A DNA stretch of 42,406 bases from a virus. Taxonomy: Duplodnaviria > Heunggongvirae > Uroviricota > Caudoviricetes. The stretch lies in IMG/VR virus record IMGVR_UViG_2663762841_000006, positions 1-42,406 of that record. One strand, 5' to 3'. Positions 4,981-26,365 of this stretch are shown here, in pieces (the first letter of the stretch is position 1; each line of letters begins with the position of its first letter). A program made the position numbers and the translations under genes. The notes beneath the pieces were generated by a model that searched no databases, had not been told where the DNA came from, and was given only the letters and a program-made list of their open reading frames with translations.

Positions 4981-5454
4981 CTAGAACGGAATATCCGAAT
5001 CGTCGAAGTTCATAGGTGGTTCGCTGTGATTCCCCTGCTGCTGAGATTGCTGTCTTTGTTGCTGACCGTTATTTCGCTGATGTGAAGACTGTTCATTGCC
5101 TCCTTGTTTGCCACCAAGCATTTGCATGGTTCCACCAACGCCCACGATGACTTCGGTAGTGAACCGATCCTGTCCACTTTGATCCTGCCATTTTCTTGTC
5201 CGCAATTTGCCTTCAAGATAAACCTCAGAGCCTTTTCGCAGATATTCGCTGGCAATTTCTGCCAGTTTCCCGCTCATTACCACGCGGTGCCACTCCGTCT
5301 GCTCCTTTTGCTCTCCAGTTTGCTTATCACGCCATTGTTCTGACGTAGCAACTGTAAGGTTTGCAAATGCCGTTCCTGATGGTGAATATCTGATTTCTGG
5401 ATCATGCCCAAGGCGACCAATAATGATCACCTTATTTACGCCTCTGCTTGCCAT
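4981..5454 (-). CDS. ssb: single-stranded DNA-binding protein
   Basis: 157 aa; OB-fold N-terminus ([15 protein letters not shown]...), Gly/Gln-rich linker, acidic DDSDIPF C-terminal tail. Confidence 0.9.
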
Positions 5455-6162
5455 TTATGCCGCCTGTTTTAGTTCGTTAACTCTGATGTTCATTACCTGA
5501 ACGCATTTAGCCTGCGCATCCTCATTGCCAGCCATTAATTGCCAGTCATGCTGATAACGCTCGATGAGTTTTTTCTTGTCAGTTTCTTTCGATGCAAAAT
5601 CGCTGAAGTCTTTCAGGATTTGTTCGTAGTCAACCGATGGAGATTTCTGGTTGGTATTTTCTGGTGATGGTTTGTTATCTGATGCTGGGATTGCCCATCC
5701 CGGCAGCGATGGAGGGAGCCAGTAAAATCCTGTTCCATCCTTGAGTTTTGCCCTGTGCCATCCCTGCTTTTTATCGAGAGATGTTTGTGCAAAACCTTCC
5801 TCAAGGTTATACAGATACCGACCGATTCCCCACTGAACGGCAGCGCGCTTCATTGCACCGGAACGACCGCCTTTGACGGCTTCTACCTGCGTGTTTTCAG
5901 CAGCATCCCATTTGGTTACCCATTCGGAATCAATCTTGATTGATATGCCGCATTCAACTCCGCCGTTGTTGGGAATATCGCGGTATTCATTGCGCCATCC
6001 TGCTTTGCCGCAAACATCGTCCAGGCGCTTCATGATTGCCCGGTTCGTGACATAAGCCAGCACCATAGCCCACACCTTGCCATCGCGTGTTTTACCGCTT
6101 TGCTGTATTCGCCATTCGATATCTTCAGGGCTGAATGGCTCATCGAATTTGTTCAAATCCAT
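5455..6162 (-). CDS. single-strand annealing recombinase (Rad52/Sak-like family, inferred)
   Basis: 235 aa directly upstream of ssb in the recombination module; family recalled from memory, not verified by profile search. Confidence 0.5.
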   Translation of the reverse strand: MDLNKFDEPFSPEDIEWRIQQSGKTRDGKVWAMVLAYVTNRAIMKRLDDVCGKAGWRNEYRDIPNNGGVECGISIKIDSEWVTKWDAAENTQVEAVKGGRSGAMKRAAVQWGIGRYLYNLEEGFAQTSLDKKQGWHRAKLKDGTGFYWLPPSLPGWAIPASDNKPSPENTNQKSPSVDYEQILKDFSDFASKETDKKKLIERYQHDWQLMAGNEDAQAKCVQVMNIRVNELKQAA

Positions 6163-6261
6163 AATTCACCTCAGAATGGACACGGCCCAAGGAAATAACG
6201 CTGATTTAATACTTCGACTCGGGACAAATTAAGGCATACCCGCATTCCTTCGCGGTCACCA

Positions 6262-6420
6262 TTATGGCGATACCAGAGAGCTTTCTGCGTGTACATGCGT
6301 CTCTGTAACTTGCTCTCCTTCACTGTGGTTGCAAGTGACATGAATATCTCCTTCGTTACCGATTAATTCTTTCATCTGACGAATGAATTCTTCGTCTGAC
6401 CAGTTATCTGTAAAACTCAT
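6262..6420 (-). CDS. small hypothetical protein, 52 aa (below the ORF-track cutoff)
   Basis: Manual translation MSFTDNWSDEEFIRQMKELIGNEGDIH...; start overlaps the stop of the upstream Kil-like ORF (ATGA). Confidence 0.3.
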   Translation of the reverse strand: MSFTDNWSDEEFIRQMKELIGNEGDIHVTCNHSEGEQVTETHVHAESSLVSP

Positions 6421-6569
6421 TTCCTGCGATACCACGGAAGGTTGATAGCTGATTTCATAGCTTTATTTGCTTCAAGCCACATTTTTGAATCACCAATAAA
6501 TCTGGCTATTACTGCTTTGTTCTGTGCTGCACGAAGCATCTGGTGATTAATGGCTATTTCATTGCGCAT
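6417..6569 (-). CDS. Kil-like small protein (50 aa), putative host cell-division inhibitor
   Basis: Manual translation MRNEIAINHQMLRAAQNKAVIARFIGDSKMW...; IA(R/T)FIGD(S/E)KM(W/F) resembles lambda Kil as recalled; position between CIII-like gene and recombinase fits. Confidence 0.4.
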   Translation of the reverse strand: MRNEIAINHQMLRAAQNKAVIARFIGDSKMWLEANKAMKSAINLPWYRRK

Positions 6570-6688
6570 AACGCCTCCAGTTGTTTCTTTGCTGCTCTGA
6601 TTAATTGTTTAACTCGGCGTGATAATTCAGATTCGTGCGGGTAGAAAGCGGACATGACGCCGCTACCCGCGAGCTGAAAGTGCATCAT
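6554..6688 (-). CDS. CIII-like small protein (44 aa), putative FtsH inhibitor
   Basis: Manual translation MMHFQLAGSGVMSAFYPHESELSRRVKQLIRAAKKQLEAL; resembles lambda CIII central region (ESLLERITRKLR); AAGGAG RBS. Confidence 0.4.
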   Translation of the reverse strand: MMHFQLAGSGVMSAFYPHESELSRRVKQLIRAAKKQLEALCAMK

Positions 6689-6763
6689 GGGTAACTCCTT
6701 ATATTTGATTGCATAACGAAAACGCCTAGAGTGAAGCGTTATTGGTATGCGGTAAAGCCGCGC

Positions 6764-7075
6764 TTAGGCGGCTGATGTTTCTTCTTTCAGGCTTTCGAGA
6801 TATTTACGTGGGTCGTCGTAACATTGGCATTCGCTGTACCAATCCACCCAGCGATCAGTAAGCCCCATCTCTGATAAATCTTCATCGGTAAGGCTCTCAT
6901 CCCACATCTCAAGGCCGTTAGCATTGCAGTAATCAGGCTTGATGTTGTTGTCATACTGAAAGGCGTCATAATCAGCCAGTGCGTCCATCAGGCGAACACC
7001 CTCTTCAACACTTGCCACTTCTGCAATGAACGGTTTCATAGGTACTTGCGGGATATGCCAGACACGTAATTTCAT
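6764..7075 (-). CDS. highly acidic 103-aa early protein, function unknown
   Basis: GGAGG RBS before ATG at 7075 (track start 7129 rejected); about 23 Asp/Glu versus 9 Lys/Arg. Confidence 0.5.
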   Translation of the reverse strand: MKLRVWHIPQVPMKPFIAEVASVEEGVRLMDALADYDAFQYDNNIKPDYCNANGLEMWDESLTDEDLSEMGLTDRWVDWYSECQCYDDPRKYLESLKEETSAA

Positions 7076-7176
7076 ATTTCCTCCGTCAAAAAAATTGCCC
7101 TCACACTGGAGGGCAAAGAAGATTTCCAATAATCAGAACAAGTCGGCTCCTGTTTAGTTACGAGCGACATTGCTCC

Positions 7177-7218: not shown

Positions 7219-7689
7219 CTAATAAAATACCCAATTTTCTGTTTCTTGGTTGTGCCCAAAGTTATATTCAATATCTGGTGTTGATGTATCAATATTCTTC
7301 ATCCCATCAACAAGAGTTGATACAACAGCCAAATCTTGTTTGATTCTCATTAAATGGTATTTCTTCCGGCGCAATAAACTTTCAATGGCAAGTTTCTTCG
7401 TTGGGAATGCAAAAGATCTTTCTGCATTTTTTGCTACTTTCTTAATTGCATATCTATTTCTCCTTTGTTTCCATTCCTGTAACCACTGATTTGGTGCTGG
7501 TTTAAAATTAACAATCCAATGCGCAGGAACCAACCATGCATAATGCTCTGTCTGATGAAAAGCTATATATTGAAGTGCGAATATTTTTATCCCATCTTCT
7601 TCAACTGTCGCCTGGAATCTCCAGAAAACAGGCATTCCATCATGTTCAGTTTCTGATTCAGGAAAAGGTACGCTCCATGATTTTGTCAT
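7219..7689 (-). CDS. AT-rich moron protein, 156 aa, unknown function, immediately downstream of N
   Basis: GAGGTGA RBS; coding sequence is visibly AT-rich (A/T-ending codons throughout) relative to neighbours; basic region KQRRNRYAIKKVAK...LLRRKKYHLMRIK. Confidence 0.55.
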   Translation of the reverse strand: MTKSWSVPFPESETEHDGMPVFWRFQATVEEDGIKIFALQYIAFHQTEHYAWLVPAHWIVNFKPAPNQWLQEWKQRRNRYAIKKVAKNAERSFAFPTKKLAIESLLRRKKYHLMRIKQDLAVVSTLVDGMKNIDTSTPDIEYNFGHNQETENWVFY

Positions 7690-7697
7690 ATCTCACC

Positions 7698-7997
7698 TCA
7701 AATAAGTGGTTTGCTGCCTAATTTCATTTTCTGGCGACCAACACAAGTCACACCCATTTCACTGCGTGGCTTGCGGTAGTAAATACGGTTCTGTTTACGC
7801 TCGACTTCATCTGCCTTCTTGCAGCGAAGGCTTACGAGTGATGCTGCTTTGTCTGCTCTGACGCAACCAGAGAGCTTTAGCGCAATCTTTCGCGCCAGTC
7901 GCTGTTCTTGCATTGCCTGTTCACGTTGAGCCTGTCTGCGTGCTCTGCGGCGATTTCTGGCGTTATCGTCAGCCAGATATGTAATGACTACTGTCAT
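7698..7997 (-). CDS. N-like transcription antitermination protein
   Basis: 99 aa; arginine-rich motif NARNRRRARRQAQREQ near N-terminus; GGAGG RBS; first gene downstream of PL/nutL. Confidence 0.6.
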   Translation of the reverse strand: MTVVITYLADDNARNRRRARRQAQREQAMQEQRLARKIALKLSGCVRADKAASLVSLRCKKADEVERKQNRIYYRKPRSEMGVTCVGRQKMKLGSKPLI

Positions 7998-8192
7998 GTT
8001 GACCTCCGATGATTGACTTTGGTGATTGGATGGCCGGTGCTGAATTCCGGCTTACTGGTTAGAGCGCCCGCACTACCAGTGACGCTGTCTTGAGGCGCAG
8101 ATTGGTTACTGCTTGCCATGAGCGCTGTTTATACATTGGTCGAGCATCAGCCTGCTCATTCATCCAATCCCAAAGCCAACTACTCTTTGGTT

Positions 8193-8232
8193 CCCGCATT
8201 TCGGCGGGACAATCCCATCAATGTTAAAGAGC
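8193..8232 (-). promoter_or_regulatory. nutL (boxA ggctctttaa; boxB cccgccgaaatgcggg)
   Basis: boxA close to CGCTCTTTA consensus; boxB hairpin identical to the one at 9350..9365 (nutR) in the opposite orientation. Confidence 0.6.
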
Positions 8233-8278
8233 CTGCCAATCTATTCCGTTTGGCTACCAGCGTCCTGCTGATGGCTTA

Positions 8279-8308
8279 AATTTAAGATCTCTTTAATTAA
8301 TGGTCAAG
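8279..8308 (-). promoter_or_regulatory. PL promoter (-35 TTGACC, -10 TAAATT/TTAAAT) with TTAAG-containing operator-like palindromes
   Basis: Read on minus strand; 17-18 bp spacing; sits between cI terminator and nutL. Confidence 0.45.
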
Positions 8309-8374
8309 AATATTTTTGAAGAAAACTTAAATTTTCTTTCGTGACTTAAGTTTGGCTTTGATTTTTAAAGGAAA

Positions 8375-8398
8375 TAAAAAAAAAGGGGCGAATGCCCC
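8375..8398 (-). terminator. rho-independent terminator downstream of repressor gene
   Basis: Hairpin ggggc-gaat-gcccc followed on minus strand by a long U-run (plus-strand A10). Confidence 0.7.
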
Positions 8399-8399
8399 C

Positions 8400-9050
8400 T
8401 TATGGAAGGTTTGCTAGTTTTGCATCGACAACTACGCCGATGATTTTGCAGTTTCCGTTGATCTCGATCATCGGATATTGTGGGTTAAGTGGTTTTAGAA
8501 ACTTCCTGCCTGCATCAATAACTAACTTCTTGAAAGTTGCCTCGTTTTCTCCTTCGAGCTTTGCAACTACCAGTTTCCCGTTACGCGGCTCTACTTCAGG
8601 ATCGACGAGTATTATCATTCCTTCAGGGATACTGAGACCGGCCGGAGCCGTCATTGAGTCTCCCTTCACGTCCAACCAAAACGAATCTTCTGAACAGTCT
8701 ACGGTTGTATCGTACCAGTTATCTATTGCACGCTTATGATATGGTTCTACAGCTTCCATCCAGCATCCTGCGCTCACCCAGCTAATCAGAGGGTATGACC
8801 CTCTTGGATCATGCCTACTGTGATAGGCAATGTTTGAAAGACTTTCCTCTCCTTTCATCAGATAGTCAGGGGAACACTTCAACGCATTAGCCAGGGCGAG
8901 AAGATTCTCTCCATTTGGCTCTGTCTCAGAGCGTTCCCACTGAGATATGGCAACATTAGACACGCCGACCATCTTTCCAAGTGCGGCCTGCCTGATCTTG
9001 AGTTCTTTTCTCCGAGCGCGAATGCGCTCTCCCATCAATTGAGTTTTCAT
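8400..9050 (-). CDS. c2: CI/C2-type prophage repressor (HTH + LexA-like S24 peptidase domain), P22 C2-like
   Basis: 216 aa; N-terminal HTH (QAALGKMVGVSNVAISQWER), C-terminal autocleavage domain (AG, GDSM, K motif); appears near-identical to the P22 C2 sequence as I recall it. Confidence 0.9.
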   Translation of the reverse strand: MKTQLMGERIRARRKELKIRQAALGKMVGVSNVAISQWERSETEPNGENLLALANALKCSPDYLMKGEESLSNIAYHSRHDPRGSYPLISWVSAGCWMEAVEPYHKRAIDNWYDTTVDCSEDSFWLDVKGDSMTAPAGLSIPEGMIILVDPEVEPRNGKLVVAKLEGENEATFKKLVIDAGRKFLKPLNPQYPMIEINGNCKIIGVVVDAKLANLP

Positions 9051-22057: not shown

Positions 22058-24184
22058 ATGGCAGAGACATTAGAGAAAAAACATGAGCGGATCATGCTCA
22101 GGTTTGACCGCGCCTATTCTCCACAGAAGGAAGTGCGCGAAAAGTGCATTGAAGCTACGAGGTTTGCTCGTGTCCCCGGAGGTCAATGGGAAGGAGCAAC
22201 GGCGGCTGGAACTAAGCTTGATGAGCAGTTCGAGAAGTATCCTAAGTTTGAAATCAATAAGGTAGCAACTGAACTTAACCGCATCATTGCAGAATACCGC
22301 AATAACAGAATAACCGTTAATTTTCGTCCTGGTGACAGAGAGGCAAGCGAAGAGTTAGCCAATAAATTAAATGGTCTGTTCCGTGCTGACTACGAAGAAA
22401 CTGATGGCGGTGAGGCTTGCGATAATGCATTTGACGACGCTGCTACTGGTGGTTTCGGTTGCTTCCGTTTGACGTCGATGCTGGTCAATGAATACGACCC
22501 CATGGACGATCGTCAGCGTATTGCTATTGAACCAATATACGACCCGTCGCGCTCTGTGTGGTTTGACCCTGACGCTAAGAAGTACGACAAATCTGACGCG
22601 TTGTGGGCGTTCTGTATGTATTCGTTGTCACCTGAAAAATATGAGGCTGAATACGGGAAGAAACCTCCTACTTCTCTGGATGTAACGTCTATGACCAGTT
22701 GGGAATATAACTGGTTTGGTGCAGATGTTATTTACATAGCGAAGTATTACGAAGTTCGTAAAGAGTCTGTTGACGTCATCAGTTATCGACATCCAATCAC
22801 TGGAGAGATTGCAACATACGACAGTGATCAGGTTGAAGATATTGAAGATGAACTGGCAATAGCTGGATTTCATGAAGTGGCAAGGCGCTCAGTGAAGCGC
22901 CGTCGTGTGTATGTATCCGTAGTGGATGGTGATGGTTTCCTTGAGAAACCTCGACGTATTCCTGGTGAACATATCCCCCTCATCCCGGTTTATGGAAAAC
23001 GCTGGTTCATTGATGACATTGAGCGTGTCGAAGGGCACATTGCAAAAGCAATGGATCCACAACGTTTGTACAACCTTCAGGTATCAATGCTGGCTGATAC
23101 TGCAGCGCAAGACCCCGGTCAGATCCCTATAGTTGGCATGGAGCAAATTCGTGGACTTGAGAAGCACTGGGAGGCTCGCAACAAGAAACGACCAGCGTTC
23201 TTGCCGTTGCGCGAAGTGAGAGATAAATCTGGCAACATTATCGCTGGAGCTACCCCGGCAGGATATACACAGCCTGCGGTTATGAATCAGGCATTGGCTG
23301 CATTACTACAGCAAACCAGTGCAGATATTCAGGAGGTTACAGGCGGCAGTCAGGCCATGCAGCAGATGCCAAGTAATATTGCTCAGGAAACGGTTAACAA
23401 CTTGATGAACAGAGCAGATATGGCTTCGTTTATCTATCTGGACAATATGGCGAAAAGTCTTAAACGCGCTGGTGAAGTATGGCTGTCAATGGCGCGTGAA
23501 GTGTACGGTTCAGAGCGTGAAGTGCGCATCGTTAACGAAGATGGAAGTGATGATATCGCTGTCCTGAGCGCACAGGTTGTTGACAGGCAAACAGGGGCTG
23601 TTGTTGCTTTAAATGACCTTTCTGTCGGTCGATACGATGTGACGGTTGATGTTGGACCAAGCTACACAGCACGACGTGATGCAACGGTTTCTGTACTGAC
23701 AAATGTCCTTAGCTCTATGCTTCCAACAGACCCAATGCGCCCGGCAATTCAGGGTATTATTCTGGACAATATTGATGGCGAAGGCCTTGATGACTTCAAA
23801 GAGTACAACCGAAACCAACTGCTGATATCTGGCATTGCAAAACCACGCAATGAGAAAGAGCAGCAGATTGTTCAACAGGCGCAAATGGCAGCACAAAGCC
23901 AGCCAAATCCTGAAATGGTTCTCGCTCAGGCGCAAATGGTAGCAGCGCAGGCAGAAGCGCAAAAAGCAACTAACGAAACTGCTCAAACTCAAATCAAAGC
24001 ATTTACTGCCCAGCAGGATGCGATGGAGAGTCAGGCAAACACTGTCTATAAACTGGCTCAAGCCAGAAACATCGATGACAAAGCAGTGATGGAGGCAATA
24101 CGCCTTCTGAAAGATGTCGCCGAGTCACAACAACAGCAATTCCAGTCACCACCACAGTCACCGGCAGACTTAATGCCGAGTTAA
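22058..24184 (+). CDS. portal protein (P22 gp1-like)
   Basis: 708 aa from ATG 22058; position after TerL; Gln-rich C-terminal barrel region. Confidence 0.85.
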   Translation: MAETLEKKHERIMLRFDRAYSPQKEVREKCIEATRFARVPGGQWEGATAAGTKLDEQFEKYPKFEINKVATELNRIIAEYRNNRITVNFRPGDREASEELANKLNGLFRADYEETDGGEACDNAFDDAATGGFGCFRLTSMLVNEYDPMDDRQRIAIEPIYDPSRSVWFDPDAKKYDKSDALWAFCMYSLSPEKYEAEYGKKPPTSLDVTSMTSWEYNWFGADVIYIAKYYEVRKESVDVISYRHPITGEIATYDSDQVEDIEDELAIAGFHEVARRSVKRRRVYVSVVDGDGFLEKPRRIPGEHIPLIPVYGKRWFIDDIERVEGHIAKAMDPQRLYNLQVSMLADTAAQDPGQIPIVGMEQIRGLEKHWEARNKKRPAFLPLREVRDKSGNIIAGATPAGYTQPAVMNQALAALLQQTSADIQEVTGGSQAMQQMPSNIAQETVNNLMNRADMASFIYLDNMAKSLKRAGEVWLSMAREVYGSEREVRIVNEDGSDDIAVLSAQVVDRQTGAVVALNDLSVGRYDVTVDVGPSYTARRDATVSVLTNVLSSMLPTDPMRPAIQGIILDNIDGEGLDDFKEYNRNQLLISGIAKPRNEKEQQIVQQAQMAAQSQPNPEMVLAQAQMVAAQAEAQKATNETAQTQIKAFTAQQDAMESQANTVYKLAQARNIDDKAVMEAIRLLKDVAESQQQQFQSPPQSPADLMPS

Positions 24185-24197
24185 CCAGGAGTAATCA

Positions 24198-25082
24198 ATG
24201 GAAAACGAACTGATCATCGACGGTCAGGTTATTGACCTGTCTGAAACACAGGAAAATGCAGAAGAAACCATCATCCAAACAGAGTCACAGCCTGAGAATG
24301 AAAGCCAGGATGACAACGGTAAAGAGGTGGCAACTGAGCCTGAAAAAACCGAAGAGACACCAGAAGATTACGCCTTGCGTATTGGTGATGAAGAAATTCA
24401 GCTTAACGCTGACGATGATGATCACATTGACGGGCAACCTGCGCCGCAATGGGTGAAAGATCTTCGCAAAGGCTTCAAAGAAACACAGAAAGAAAACCGT
24501 GAGTTGCGCCGCCAGCTTGAGGAAGCATTAGCCAAGCCAGCGGAACATCAGCAACCACAACCAGACGCTATTCCACCAAAACCGACTCTTGAGTCGTGTG
24601 ATTATGACGAACAGGCGTTTGAACAGGCATTGACTGATTGGCATGAGAAAAAAGGCCGTGTCGAACAGCAGCAGCAACAAAAACTACGTCAGCAACAGGA
24701 ATACCAGCAGCGTTTCCAGCAAAGGGTAGAAGCGCATAAACAACGGGCAGCCAAACTTCCTGTGAAAGATTATCAGGAAATGGAAGCCATTGTTCTTAGT
24801 GAGCTACCACCAATTCAGCAGGAAATCATCATTCACTGTGCAGACGAAGGCTCTGAACTACTCGCCTATGGCTTAGGCAAGAGCCAGCAATTACGCCAGC
24901 GTGTAGCCGCTGAGACAGATCCAATTCGCGCAGCATTCCTCTTGGGGCAGATTAGCAAACAGGTAAGCCTTGCTCCAAAACCAAAGAAAGCCATCAAGCC
25001 AGAGCCGGAAGTACGTGGTGGCGGTGCTGATGCGAAACAAGACGAATTCAACAAATTATGCCCCGGCGCAAAAATCGAATAA
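24198..25082 (+). CDS. scaffolding protein
   Basis: 294 aa, acidic N-terminus, helical Gln-rich middle; between portal and coat. Confidence 0.8.
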   Translation: MENELIIDGQVIDLSETQENAEETIIQTESQPENESQDDNGKEVATEPEKTEETPEDYALRIGDEEIQLNADDDDHIDGQPAPQWVKDLRKGFKETQKENRELRRQLEEALAKPAEHQQPQPDAIPPKPTLESCDYDEQAFEQALTDWHEKKGRVEQQQQQKLRQQQEYQQRFQQRVEAHKQRAAKLPVKDYQEMEAIVLSELPPIQQEIIIHCADEGSELLAYGLGKSQQLRQRVAAETDPIRAAFLLGQISKQVSLAPKPKKAIKPEPEVRGGGADAKQDEFNKLCPGAKIE

Positions 25083-25093
25083 GGAAAAGATAA

Positions 25094-26365
25094 ATGCCTA
25101 ACAATCTCGACAGTAACGTCAGTCAAATCGTTCTGAAAAAATTCCTTCCGGGTTTTATGTCAGATTTAGTTCTGGCGAAAACCGTAGACCGTCAGTTGCT
25201 GGCAGGTGAAATCAACTCCAGCACTGGCGATAGCGTTAGCTTTAAACGTCCGCATCAATTCTCATCCCTCCGTACTCCCACTGGTGATATTTCAGGGAAA
25301 AATAAAAACAACCTGATCTCAGGTAAAGCTACGGGGCGTGTAGGTAACTACATCACTGTTGCTGTTGAATATCAGCAACTGGAGGAAGCGATCAAGCTTA
25401 ACCAGCTGGAAGAAATTCTCGCGCCGGTTCGCCAGCGAATCGTTACCGACCTTGAAACAGAGCTTGCTCACTTCATGATGAATAACGGTGCGTTGTCACT
25501 TGGTAGCCCCAATACTCCAATCACCAAATGGTCTGATGTTGCGCAGACGGCATCTTTCCTGAAAGACCTCGGCGTTAATGAAGGTGAAAACTATGCTGTA
25601 ATGGATCCATGGTCTGCACAGCGACTTGCTGATGCGCAGACTGGTTTGCATGCTTCAGATCAATTGGTTCGTACTGCATGGGAGAACGCACAGATCCCAA
25701 CCAATTTTGGCGGCATTCGCGCACTGATGTCTAATGGGCTTGCCTCTCGTACGCAGGGGGCATTTGGCGGAACACTGACAGTCAAAACACAGCCAACTGT
25801 TACCTATAACGCAGTTAAAGACTCATACCAGTTCACTGTAACATTGACCGGAGCGACAGCCAGCGTTACAGGTTTTCTGAAAGCTGGTGATCAGGTCAAA
25901 TTCACCAATACCTACTGGCTGCAACAGCAGACCAAACAGGCGTTGTATAACGGAGCCACACCAATTAGCTTCACTGCAACGGTTACTGCTGATGCTAATT
26001 CAGACAGCGGTGGCGATGTGACGGTTACGCTTTCTGGTGTTCCGATTTATGACACTACAAACCCGCAGTACAACTCTGTAAGTCGTCAGGTAGAGGCAGG
26101 CGATGCCGTATCTGTAGTAGGCACTGCTAGCCAGACAATGAAGCCAAACCTGTTCTATAACAAGTTCTTCTGTGGACTTGGCTCTATCCCACTGCCGAAA
26201 CTGCACAGTATTGATTCTGCTGTTGCAACATATGAAGGTTTCTCCATCCGCGTACATAAATACGCAGATGGCGATGCCAACGTGCAAAAAATGCGCTTCG
26301 ACTTACTGCCTGCATATGTGTGCTTTAACCCTCACATGGGCGGTCAGTTCTTCGGTAATCCGTAA
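25094..26365 (+). CDS. major capsid (coat) protein
   Basis: 423 aa; position and size match P22/Sf6 coat; followed by a strong terminator. Confidence 0.85.
   Translation: MPNNLDSNVSQIVLKKFLPGFMSDLVLAKTVDRQLLAGEINSSTGDSVSFKRPHQFSSLRTPTGDISGKNKNNLISGKATGRVGNYITVAVEYQQLEEAIKLNQLEEILAPVRQRIVTDLETELAHFMMNNGALSLGSPNTPITKWSDVAQTASFLKDLGVNEGENYAVMDPWSAQRLADAQTGLHASDQLVRTAWENAQIPTNFGGIRALMSNGLASRTQGAFGGTLTVKTQPTVTYNAVKDSYQFTVTLTGATASVTGFLKAGDQVKFTNTYWLQQQTKQALYNGATPISFTATVTADANSDSGGDVTVTLSGVPIYDTTNPQYNSVSRQVEAGDAVSVVGTASQTMKPNLFYNKFFCGLGSIPLPKLHSIDSAVATYEGFSIRVHKYADGDANVQKMRFDLLPAYVCFNPHMGGQFFGNP

Follow-up and report, generated by a model that had tools for sequence, protein, structure and literature searches.

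Gene 17 of the Salmonella phage P22 is a close and long-known relative of the gene reported here, and is annotated in the curated P22 records (BK000583 and AF527608) with the phrase "allows growth on phage Fels2 lysogen". PMC6486243 likewise states that gp17 counteracts Fels-2 exclusion; the primary source of the phenotype is Semerjian et al. 1989, cited here by way of the GenBank notes and that secondary citation. Fels-1 was considered as the excluding prophage and was ruled out; the P22 records and PMC6486243 name Fels-2. The family to which gene 17 belongs (PF17420/PHROG 1510) nonetheless carries the name "superinfection exclusion protein" in Pfam, PHROGs and PGAP alike.

Other small acidic proteins provide a second point of comparison. 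These include Ocr of phage T7 (gene 0.3), an all-helical inhibitor of type I restriction and of BREX, and the ArdA proteins of conjugative plasmids and transposons. Among the accepted DNA mimics, Ugi, AcrIIA4 and Arn have alpha/beta folds and are comparably small and acidic.

We have analysed a stretch of 42,406 nucleotides (positions 1 to 42,406 of IMG/VR record IMGVR_UViG_2663762841_000006; referred to here as the window), which as a whole is a P22-like/lambdoid mosaic, its closest relatives being vB_EcoP-683R2, IME10, HK620 and Sf6. An initial annotation of this DNA proposed that one small acidic product is a DNA mimic or an anti-defence factor. The gene in question is a known, catalogued gene at a known place, and belongs to a named family that went unrecognised in the initial annotation. 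The second half of the proposal is supported by orthology with P22 gp17, from which the window copy is probably an anti-defence factor; the first half, DNA mimicry, finds no positive support beyond the net charge of the protein.

The gene 17 homologue and its product

The gene 17 homologue occupies positions 6764–7075 on the minus strand, with an ATG start codon at 7075–7073, a TAA stop codon at 6766–6764, and a length of 103 codons plus the stop; its product reads MKLRVWHIPQVPMKPFIAEV...SLKEETSAA. A Shine-Dalgarno sequence, GGAGG, can be read on the same strand at 7080–7084, 4 nt before the ATG, and is kept in P22. The list of open reading frames also contains a 121-aa version (6764–7129) with a TTG start, which would cross the terminator hairpin described below. 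Because of this, and because the homologues in the family alignment start mostly at, or a few residues from, the sequence MKLRVW, the 103-aa version with the ATG start is the right one, and the coordinates chosen in the initial annotation are correct.

The protein matches Pfam PF17420 (GP17) with an E-value of 4.7e-55 and a score of 184.3 bits (against a cut-off of 25), residues 1–98 aligning with positions 1–98 of the 98-position profile, and matches PHROG 1510 with an E-value of 2.7e-57. It shares 87.4% amino acid identity with P22 gp17 over all 103 residues, 92% with ST64T gene 17, and 97–99% with proteins from E. coli phages, Stx-converting phages among them (99% for one Stx1a phage protein). 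The core motifs of the GP17 family, VWxIPQxP, LxxYDxFQ, KPDYxN, WxDW and DDP, are all present, and every computable test of membership in the P22 gene 17 family gave a positive result. As far as sequence comparison can tell, the window protein is an orthologue of P22 gene 17. Close copies of the gene occur in 134 of 5426 genomes, and at least seven complete E. coli genomes contain DNA identical across all 312 bases; the genome copies among the matches listed are all annotated "superinfection exclusion protein". Searches with the protein gave no match in NCBIfam and no family at E ≤1 among the defence models of PADLOC-DB, and a phmmer search of PDB chains returned only noise (PPR repeats, E 0.13).

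The product is strongly acidic, with exactly the 23 Asp/Glu (12 D and 11 E) and 9 Lys/Arg (5 K and 4 R) that were counted initially among its 103 residues. Both of the acidic clusters quoted at that time are found, DEDLSEMGLTD at residues 64–74 and YDDPRKYLESLKEE at residues 86–99, and calculation gives a pI of 4.14 and a net charge of −14.4 at pH 7. When the window's 69 non-overlapping ORFs of 50 aa or more (median pI 8.76) are ranked, this one comes first for low pI and second for negative charge per residue, and its acidity exceeds chance. The acidity is also family-wide; all 91 aligned members have a pI of 4.05–4.49 and a net charge between −7.5 and −19.5, and ten positions (25, 37, 42, 48, 59, 78, 82, 87, 88 and, very nearly, 19) are acidic in at least 80% of them. 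The protein contains no transmembrane segment, the maximum Kyte-Doolittle value over a 19-residue window being 0.89 and the GRAVY score −0.61.

Organization of the leftward early operon

All of the genes in this part of the window are transcribed from the minus strand. Just downstream of the c2-like repressor gene (8400–9050, from the ORF list), a promoter scan places a PL-like sigma-70 promoter, TTGACC-17-TAAATT, at 8279–8307, a match to the consensus only, at 9 of 12 positions; its placement is that of PL in the P22 record. Beyond it the sequence contains a nutL-like site at 8193–8232, with a boxA, GCTCTTTAAC, at 8223–8232 and a boxB hairpin, CCCGCCGAAATGCGGG, at 8193–8208, which we take to be nutL from its resemblance to lambdoid nut sites and also from its position relative to the P22 nutL annotation. 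The N-like antiterminator gene (7698–7997) matches PHROG 271 (anti-termination protein N-like) with an E-value of 1.1e-36 and Pfam N_peptide with an E-value of 3.7e-4, the latter below the gathering score.

The next gene is an AT-rich ORF of 156 aa at 7219–7689, with a GC content of 0.35–0.39 compared to 0.466 for the window, which matches PHROG 1636 (unknown function) and has no match in Pfam. It corresponds to gp45 of HK97, with the same 156-aa length and position and with adjoining DNA that is near-identical where aligned. A terminator scan identifies a strong terminator-like hairpin, TTGCCCTCCAGTGTGAGGGCAA followed by a T-run, at 7088–7116, directly upstream of the gene 17 ribosome-binding site, which ends the transcription unit of the AT-rich ORF; the same hairpin is annotated as a putative terminator in HK97, and its P22 equivalent has another stem sequence but still pairs. 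The AT-rich ORF and this 3′ hairpin form a classic moron-like unit, and gene 17 is indeed directly downstream of it in the direction of transcription, as the initial annotation had noted.

A further hairpin, AGCCGCCTAAGCGCGGCT, lies over the gene 17 stop codon at 6756–6773 and is the homologue of P22 tL2, which overlaps the end of gene 17 in the P22 annotation; the T-run is shortened here. The terminator scan also finds a second terminator-like hairpin, AACGCTTCACTCTAGGCGTT followed by TTTCGTT, at 6721–6740, between gene 17 and cIII and within the flank shared with HK97. The operon then continues through cIII, kil, two small ORFs with PHROG "recombinase" assignments, a Rad52/Erf-type annealing protein and ssb (together 4981–6688; assigned from the ORF list, Pfam and PHROG). 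The two small ORFs (6171–6341 and 6262–6435), which match PHROGs 1723 and 2123, overlap each other between kil and the annealing-protein gene, are the counterparts of HK97 gp42 and gp42.1, and occupy the position of arf in P22. We also note that the 235-aa single-strand annealing protein (5455–6162) is assigned to families with different names, matching Pfam Rad52_Rad22 with an E-value of 5e-26 and PHROG 1097, "Erf-like".

The position of gene 17 in the leftward early operon, downstream of the PL-like promoter, nutL and N and upstream of cIII, kil and erf, agrees with its earlier description as encoding an early protein. A consensus scan found no sigma-70-like promoter on the gene 17 strand between the AT-rich ORF and gene 17, and its expression should therefore need N-mediated read-through from PL. 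From this architecture and the P22 annotation we infer that gene 17 is expressed early in the lytic cycle and is kept repressed in lysogens.

A single-gene cassette relative to HK97

Alignment of the window with HK97 delimits a cassette of 346 bp (6751–7096, minus strand), present here and missing in HK97, which contains the ribosome-binding site, gene 17 and its hairpin. In the corresponding region of HK97 (25377–25400), Gp45, the terminator and cIII are arranged without gene 17, and the flanks are virtually identical to those in the window. Because the cassette is present in one phage and absent from the other between such flanks, gene 17 would be dispensable, and the alignment presents it as a mobile module consisting of a single gene. 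One junction lies in the T-run of a terminator and the other just past the next hairpin, which points to terminator hairpins as the joints of the mosaic.

Predicted structure and sequence conservation

An AlphaFold2 model of the gene 17 protein, built with the 91-sequence alignment, has a mean pLDDT of 92.8 and a pTM of 0.81, and predicts a compact alpha/beta domain with the elements β1 (residues 3–8), β2 (16–20), α1 (23–42), β3 (52–58), α2 (64–70), β4 (76–78) and α3 (89–102). A Foldseek search of the PDB with this model returned nothing significant (best E 0.39), and a fold search of BFVD matched only members of the GP17 family; Ocr, ArdA and the other mimics of known structure are not among the matches listed. 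The initial annotation had pointed to structure prediction as a check for a mimic, and in these searches the predicted domain matched no solved structure significantly, Ocr and ArdA included. There is a noise-level likeness to the fold of ERH, the enhancer of rudimentary homologue (Foldseek E 0.39, 5–7% identity), that warrants no functional inference.

The residues L33, Y36, D37, F39, Q40, K46, D48, Y49 and W76 are invariant in the family alignment, and V5, W6, P9, Q10, P12, F16, N51, G54, D78, W79, D88 and P89 are near-invariant. They gather in three segments, the β1–β2 loop, the end of α1 together with the loop that follows it, and the connection between β4 and α3; because consecutive elements run up and down, the topology would place all three at one pole of the domain. 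The DEDLSEMGLTD cluster sits in the β3–β4 connection, at what by topology is the opposite pole. Alignment columns 63–68, within the region of this cluster, are gaps in 47–51% of the aligned relatives, and the AlphaFold2 model of an 85-aa member that lacks the acidic insertion (pLDDT 95.2) has the same core minus α2. The acidic insertion (residues ~59–75) is thus variable, and the models depict it as needless for the fold; a net negative charge persists across the alignment, but the most conspicuous acidic patch does not.

Distribution of the GP17 family

Searched against 1.84 billion representatives, the profile recovered 1194 clusters (50% identity level) at E ≤1e-3, with 786 at E ≤1e-10; lengths are mostly about 90–130 aa among the clusters listed. 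GP17 is present in 325 records of the phage collection, spread over P22-like and Stx phages, N4-like podoviruses, Kuttervirus and its relatives, and phages of Pectobacterium, Serratia and Erwinia. N4 itself and Kuttervirus (Ackermannviridae) are obligately virulent carriers. Homologues with 41–48% identity that keep about 20 invariant residues are found on large phage-like plasmids in Bacillus and Paenibacillus, and on a plasmid in Clostridium botulinum. For example, a 148-kb plasmid of Bacillus velezensis contains one at 4992–5264 of the stretch examined, and C. botulinum pRSJ10_1 contains one at about 5001–5267 of the stretch examined, where it is unannotated as a gene; the 162-kb Bacillus phage 2S-4 also has a homologue. 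Judged by these sequences, GP17 conservation is unusually deep for a small phage accessory protein. Sixteen plasmid records contain GP17, of which 15 are non-mobilizable and one is conjugative.

On distant metagenomic contigs the gene is found amid small early genes, and near RecT or Erf in two of three contexts; there is no conserved neighbour gene in these distant contexts beyond the early-region placement near Erf/RecT. The extra segments of longer homologues are heterogeneous (N4 gp49/Sf6 gp66-like, DUF6166, and RNAP alpha-CTD-like), give no coherent hint of an informative domain fusion, and may be read-through or gene-calling artefacts. We also note that two metagenomic homologues are extended at the N terminus by related segments of about 55 aa, which contain a Walker-A-like motif, GxxxxGK[ST] (GPQCCGKS and GAQASGKT), and which represent either fusion with a small upstream gene or read-through in gene calling.

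Function of the gene 17 protein

The window gene is probably an orthologue of P22 gene 17 with a counter-defence role, carried by an E. coli P22-like/lambdoid phage of the HK620/Sf6/IME10 mosaic type, although we are less sure of the details of its action. The name "superinfection exclusion protein" is a misnomer that inverts the function of gp17, which is one of counter-exclusion and anti-defence, because the curated P22 notes and PMC6486243 report the opposite activity. It is very improbable that gp17 truly acts in superinfection exclusion, as a prophage product directed against incoming phages, even though Pfam, PHROGs and PGAP all use this name. The gene lies in a PL operon under repressor control, preceded by nutL, N and a terminator, and the consensus scan detected no promoter of its own; the protein has no membrane segment, unlike what is expected of SieA/SieB-type proteins, and no PADLOC defence match. 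Moreover, homologues are present in the strictly virulent N4 and Kuttervirus, in which an exclusion of the prophage type would be senseless. Each of these observations agrees with counter-exclusion.

Two other accounts of the protein are more plausible than a genuine exclusion function, but both are unlikely. A DNA mimic would use its acidic surface to copy the phosphate backbone and block a DNA-binding defence enzyme (type I restriction, BREX or another nuclease) in the manner of Ocr and ArdA. The low pI and net charge of the protein, the acidity kept in 91 of 91 aligned members, the ten acidic family positions, and the early expression of the gene in a region where P22 also has ral are all in keeping with this, and the alpha/beta fold is compatible, since Ugi, AcrIIA4 and Arn are alpha/beta proteins too. 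However, neither sequence nor profile comparison relates the protein to Ocr or ArdA, the charge density is −0.14 per residue compared to −0.24 in Ocr (60%), and the DEDLSEMGLTD insertion is missing in about half of the aligned relatives, with a member that lacks it predicted to fold alike. Most of the invariant positions are loop residues of aromatic or polar type (Y, F, Q, K, N, W and P), a pattern that suits a specific site better than charge spread over an array. What is reported for the gene is that the phage escapes a prophage exclusion, not that restriction is alleviated, and GP17, unlike ArdA, is almost absent from conjugative plasmids. The other account, that gp17 is an enzyme, a sponge for a small molecule or signal, or a host-takeover factor acting on a conserved host component, with escape from Fels-2 as an indirect effect, likewise strikes us as improbable. 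It would suit the very deep conservation of a protein of this size (1194 clusters at 50% identity, and 41–48% identity between the E. coli phage protein and those of Bacillus, Paenibacillus and Clostridium elements), the pocket-like grouping of conserved K46, D48, Y49 and N51 with D37 and Q40 where helix 1 ends and the neighbouring loop begins, and the frequent adjacency of the gene to the recombination genes Erf or RecT. Against it, the protein matches no enzyme or sponge family in Pfam, NCBIfam or the PDB, its fusion partners are heterogeneous and perhaps gene-calling artefacts, and its small size leaves scant room for a catalytic site.

In the counter-exclusion reading that we prefer, gene 17 would belong to the leftward early (PL) operon as an accessory gene that the phage can do without. 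After infection or induction, N-antiterminated polymerase from PL would read through the upstream hairpin and transcribe gene 17, and translation from its own GGAGG site would yield a soluble, compact, strongly acidic 12-kDa alpha/beta protein. Because P22 gene 17 permits growth on cells with the P2-like prophage Fels-2, we propose that gp17 would neutralise a prophage-borne exclusion or abortive-infection function and would itself exclude no other phages. It may do so by stoichiometric binding through one pole of the domain, formed by PQVPxKxF (9–16), NxIKPDYCN (43–51), and WxDW plus DDP (76–89), and its partner may be the exclusion protein itself, or a phage or host component that triggers it. 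However, inhibitors of defence proteins, which evolve fast, are not usually conserved so strongly from one phylum to another, and this conservation could instead reflect a target conserved among hosts, or a role in catalysis or ligand binding.

Fels-2 (NC_010463) encodes in a hotspot adjoining the portal gene Q a 565-aa protein, STM2723.1 (22639–24336, minus strand), that is annotated as hypothetical but matches PADLOC AbiU with an E-value of 2.7e-112 and Pfam AIPR with an E-value of 8.8e-43. Thirteen accessory Fels-2 ORFs were scanned with PADLOC, and the only other match was an orphan Dam-type methylase. At the position of STM2723.1, P2 carries old. We infer that this AbiU/AIPR-type protein is the best candidate for the target of gp17 in Fels-2, because it is a recognisable defence gene on that prophage, which is its sole link to gp17; a full-text literature search found no paper that tests STM2723.1 as the Fels-2 exclusion gene or that identifies the excluding gene. 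The presence of an AbiU/AIPR gene turns "Fels-2 exclusion" into a testable gene-for-gene hypothesis. Extending this to the family as a whole, we suggest, as a rather unlikely proposal, that GP17 proteins, which occur in temperate and virulent phages of Proteobacteria and in elements of Firmicutes, are widespread inhibitors with a previously unsolved fold that target AbiU/AIPR-type abortive-infection proteins, or another defence or host factor shared across phyla, through the invariant aromatic/polar pole and not through charge mimicry. If true, GP17 would be the first counter-defence partner of AbiU-like systems, and hence a mechanistic handle on them.

For the window alone these findings have little consequence, gene 17 being a routine and already annotated accessory gene of lambdoid/P22-like phages. 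More generally, counts of defence versus counter-defence genes in prophages will misclassify gene 17 if they rely on its product name. The GP17 family is large, deeply conserved, and confidently folded without a solved relative, and with a phenotype dating from 1989 it makes a cheap and well-posed anti-defence target.

Comparison with known systems

The likeness to P22 is the most extensive. In both phages gene 17 lies between N (gene 24 in P22) and cIII (c3), followed by kil and erf, with the same ribosome-binding site and with hairpins at the same places, upstream of the gene and over its stop codon. The hosts differ, Salmonella for P22 and E. coli here. Upstream of gene 17, P22 has ral, orf78 and orf87 whereas the window has the 156-aa AT-rich ORF, and the T-run of tL2 is shorter here. 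Comparison of P22 2874–4337 (gene 24 to gene 17) and of window positions 7698–8400 indicates that the window phage is without ral, orf78, orf87 and sieB/esc, the AT-rich ORF filling this slot. The Fels-2 phenotype of gene 17 is known for P22, and would extend to the window copy by orthology.

Like T7 Ocr, gp17 is a small, early and very acidic protein (about 100–117 aa, with a pI of about 4). However, Ocr has about twice the net charge of the gene 17 protein, and the gene 17 model has the order β-β-α-β-α-β-α and not an Ocr-type fold. The gene 17 protein has no Pfam match other than GP17 at E ≤1, so neither Ocr nor ArdA is matched, and hhalign against T7 Ocr gives a probability of 0.13%; the remark in the initial annotation that there is no sequence identity to Ocr or ArdA thus holds. 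With ArdA the likeness is in the logic of an acidic anti-defence protein expressed early on entry, but size and fold differ, there is no Pfam ArdA match, and the GP17 family is essentially phage-borne, with just one of its 16 plasmid records conjugative.

P22 Esc and lambda Ral resemble gp17 in being small, non-essential accessory proteins of the same mosaic PL region that guard the phage from exclusion or restriction. Their sequences are unrelated to that of gp17, and Ral is not acidic (pI 7.6). Esc acts against the phage's own SieB, whereas gp17 acts against a heterologous P2-like prophage.
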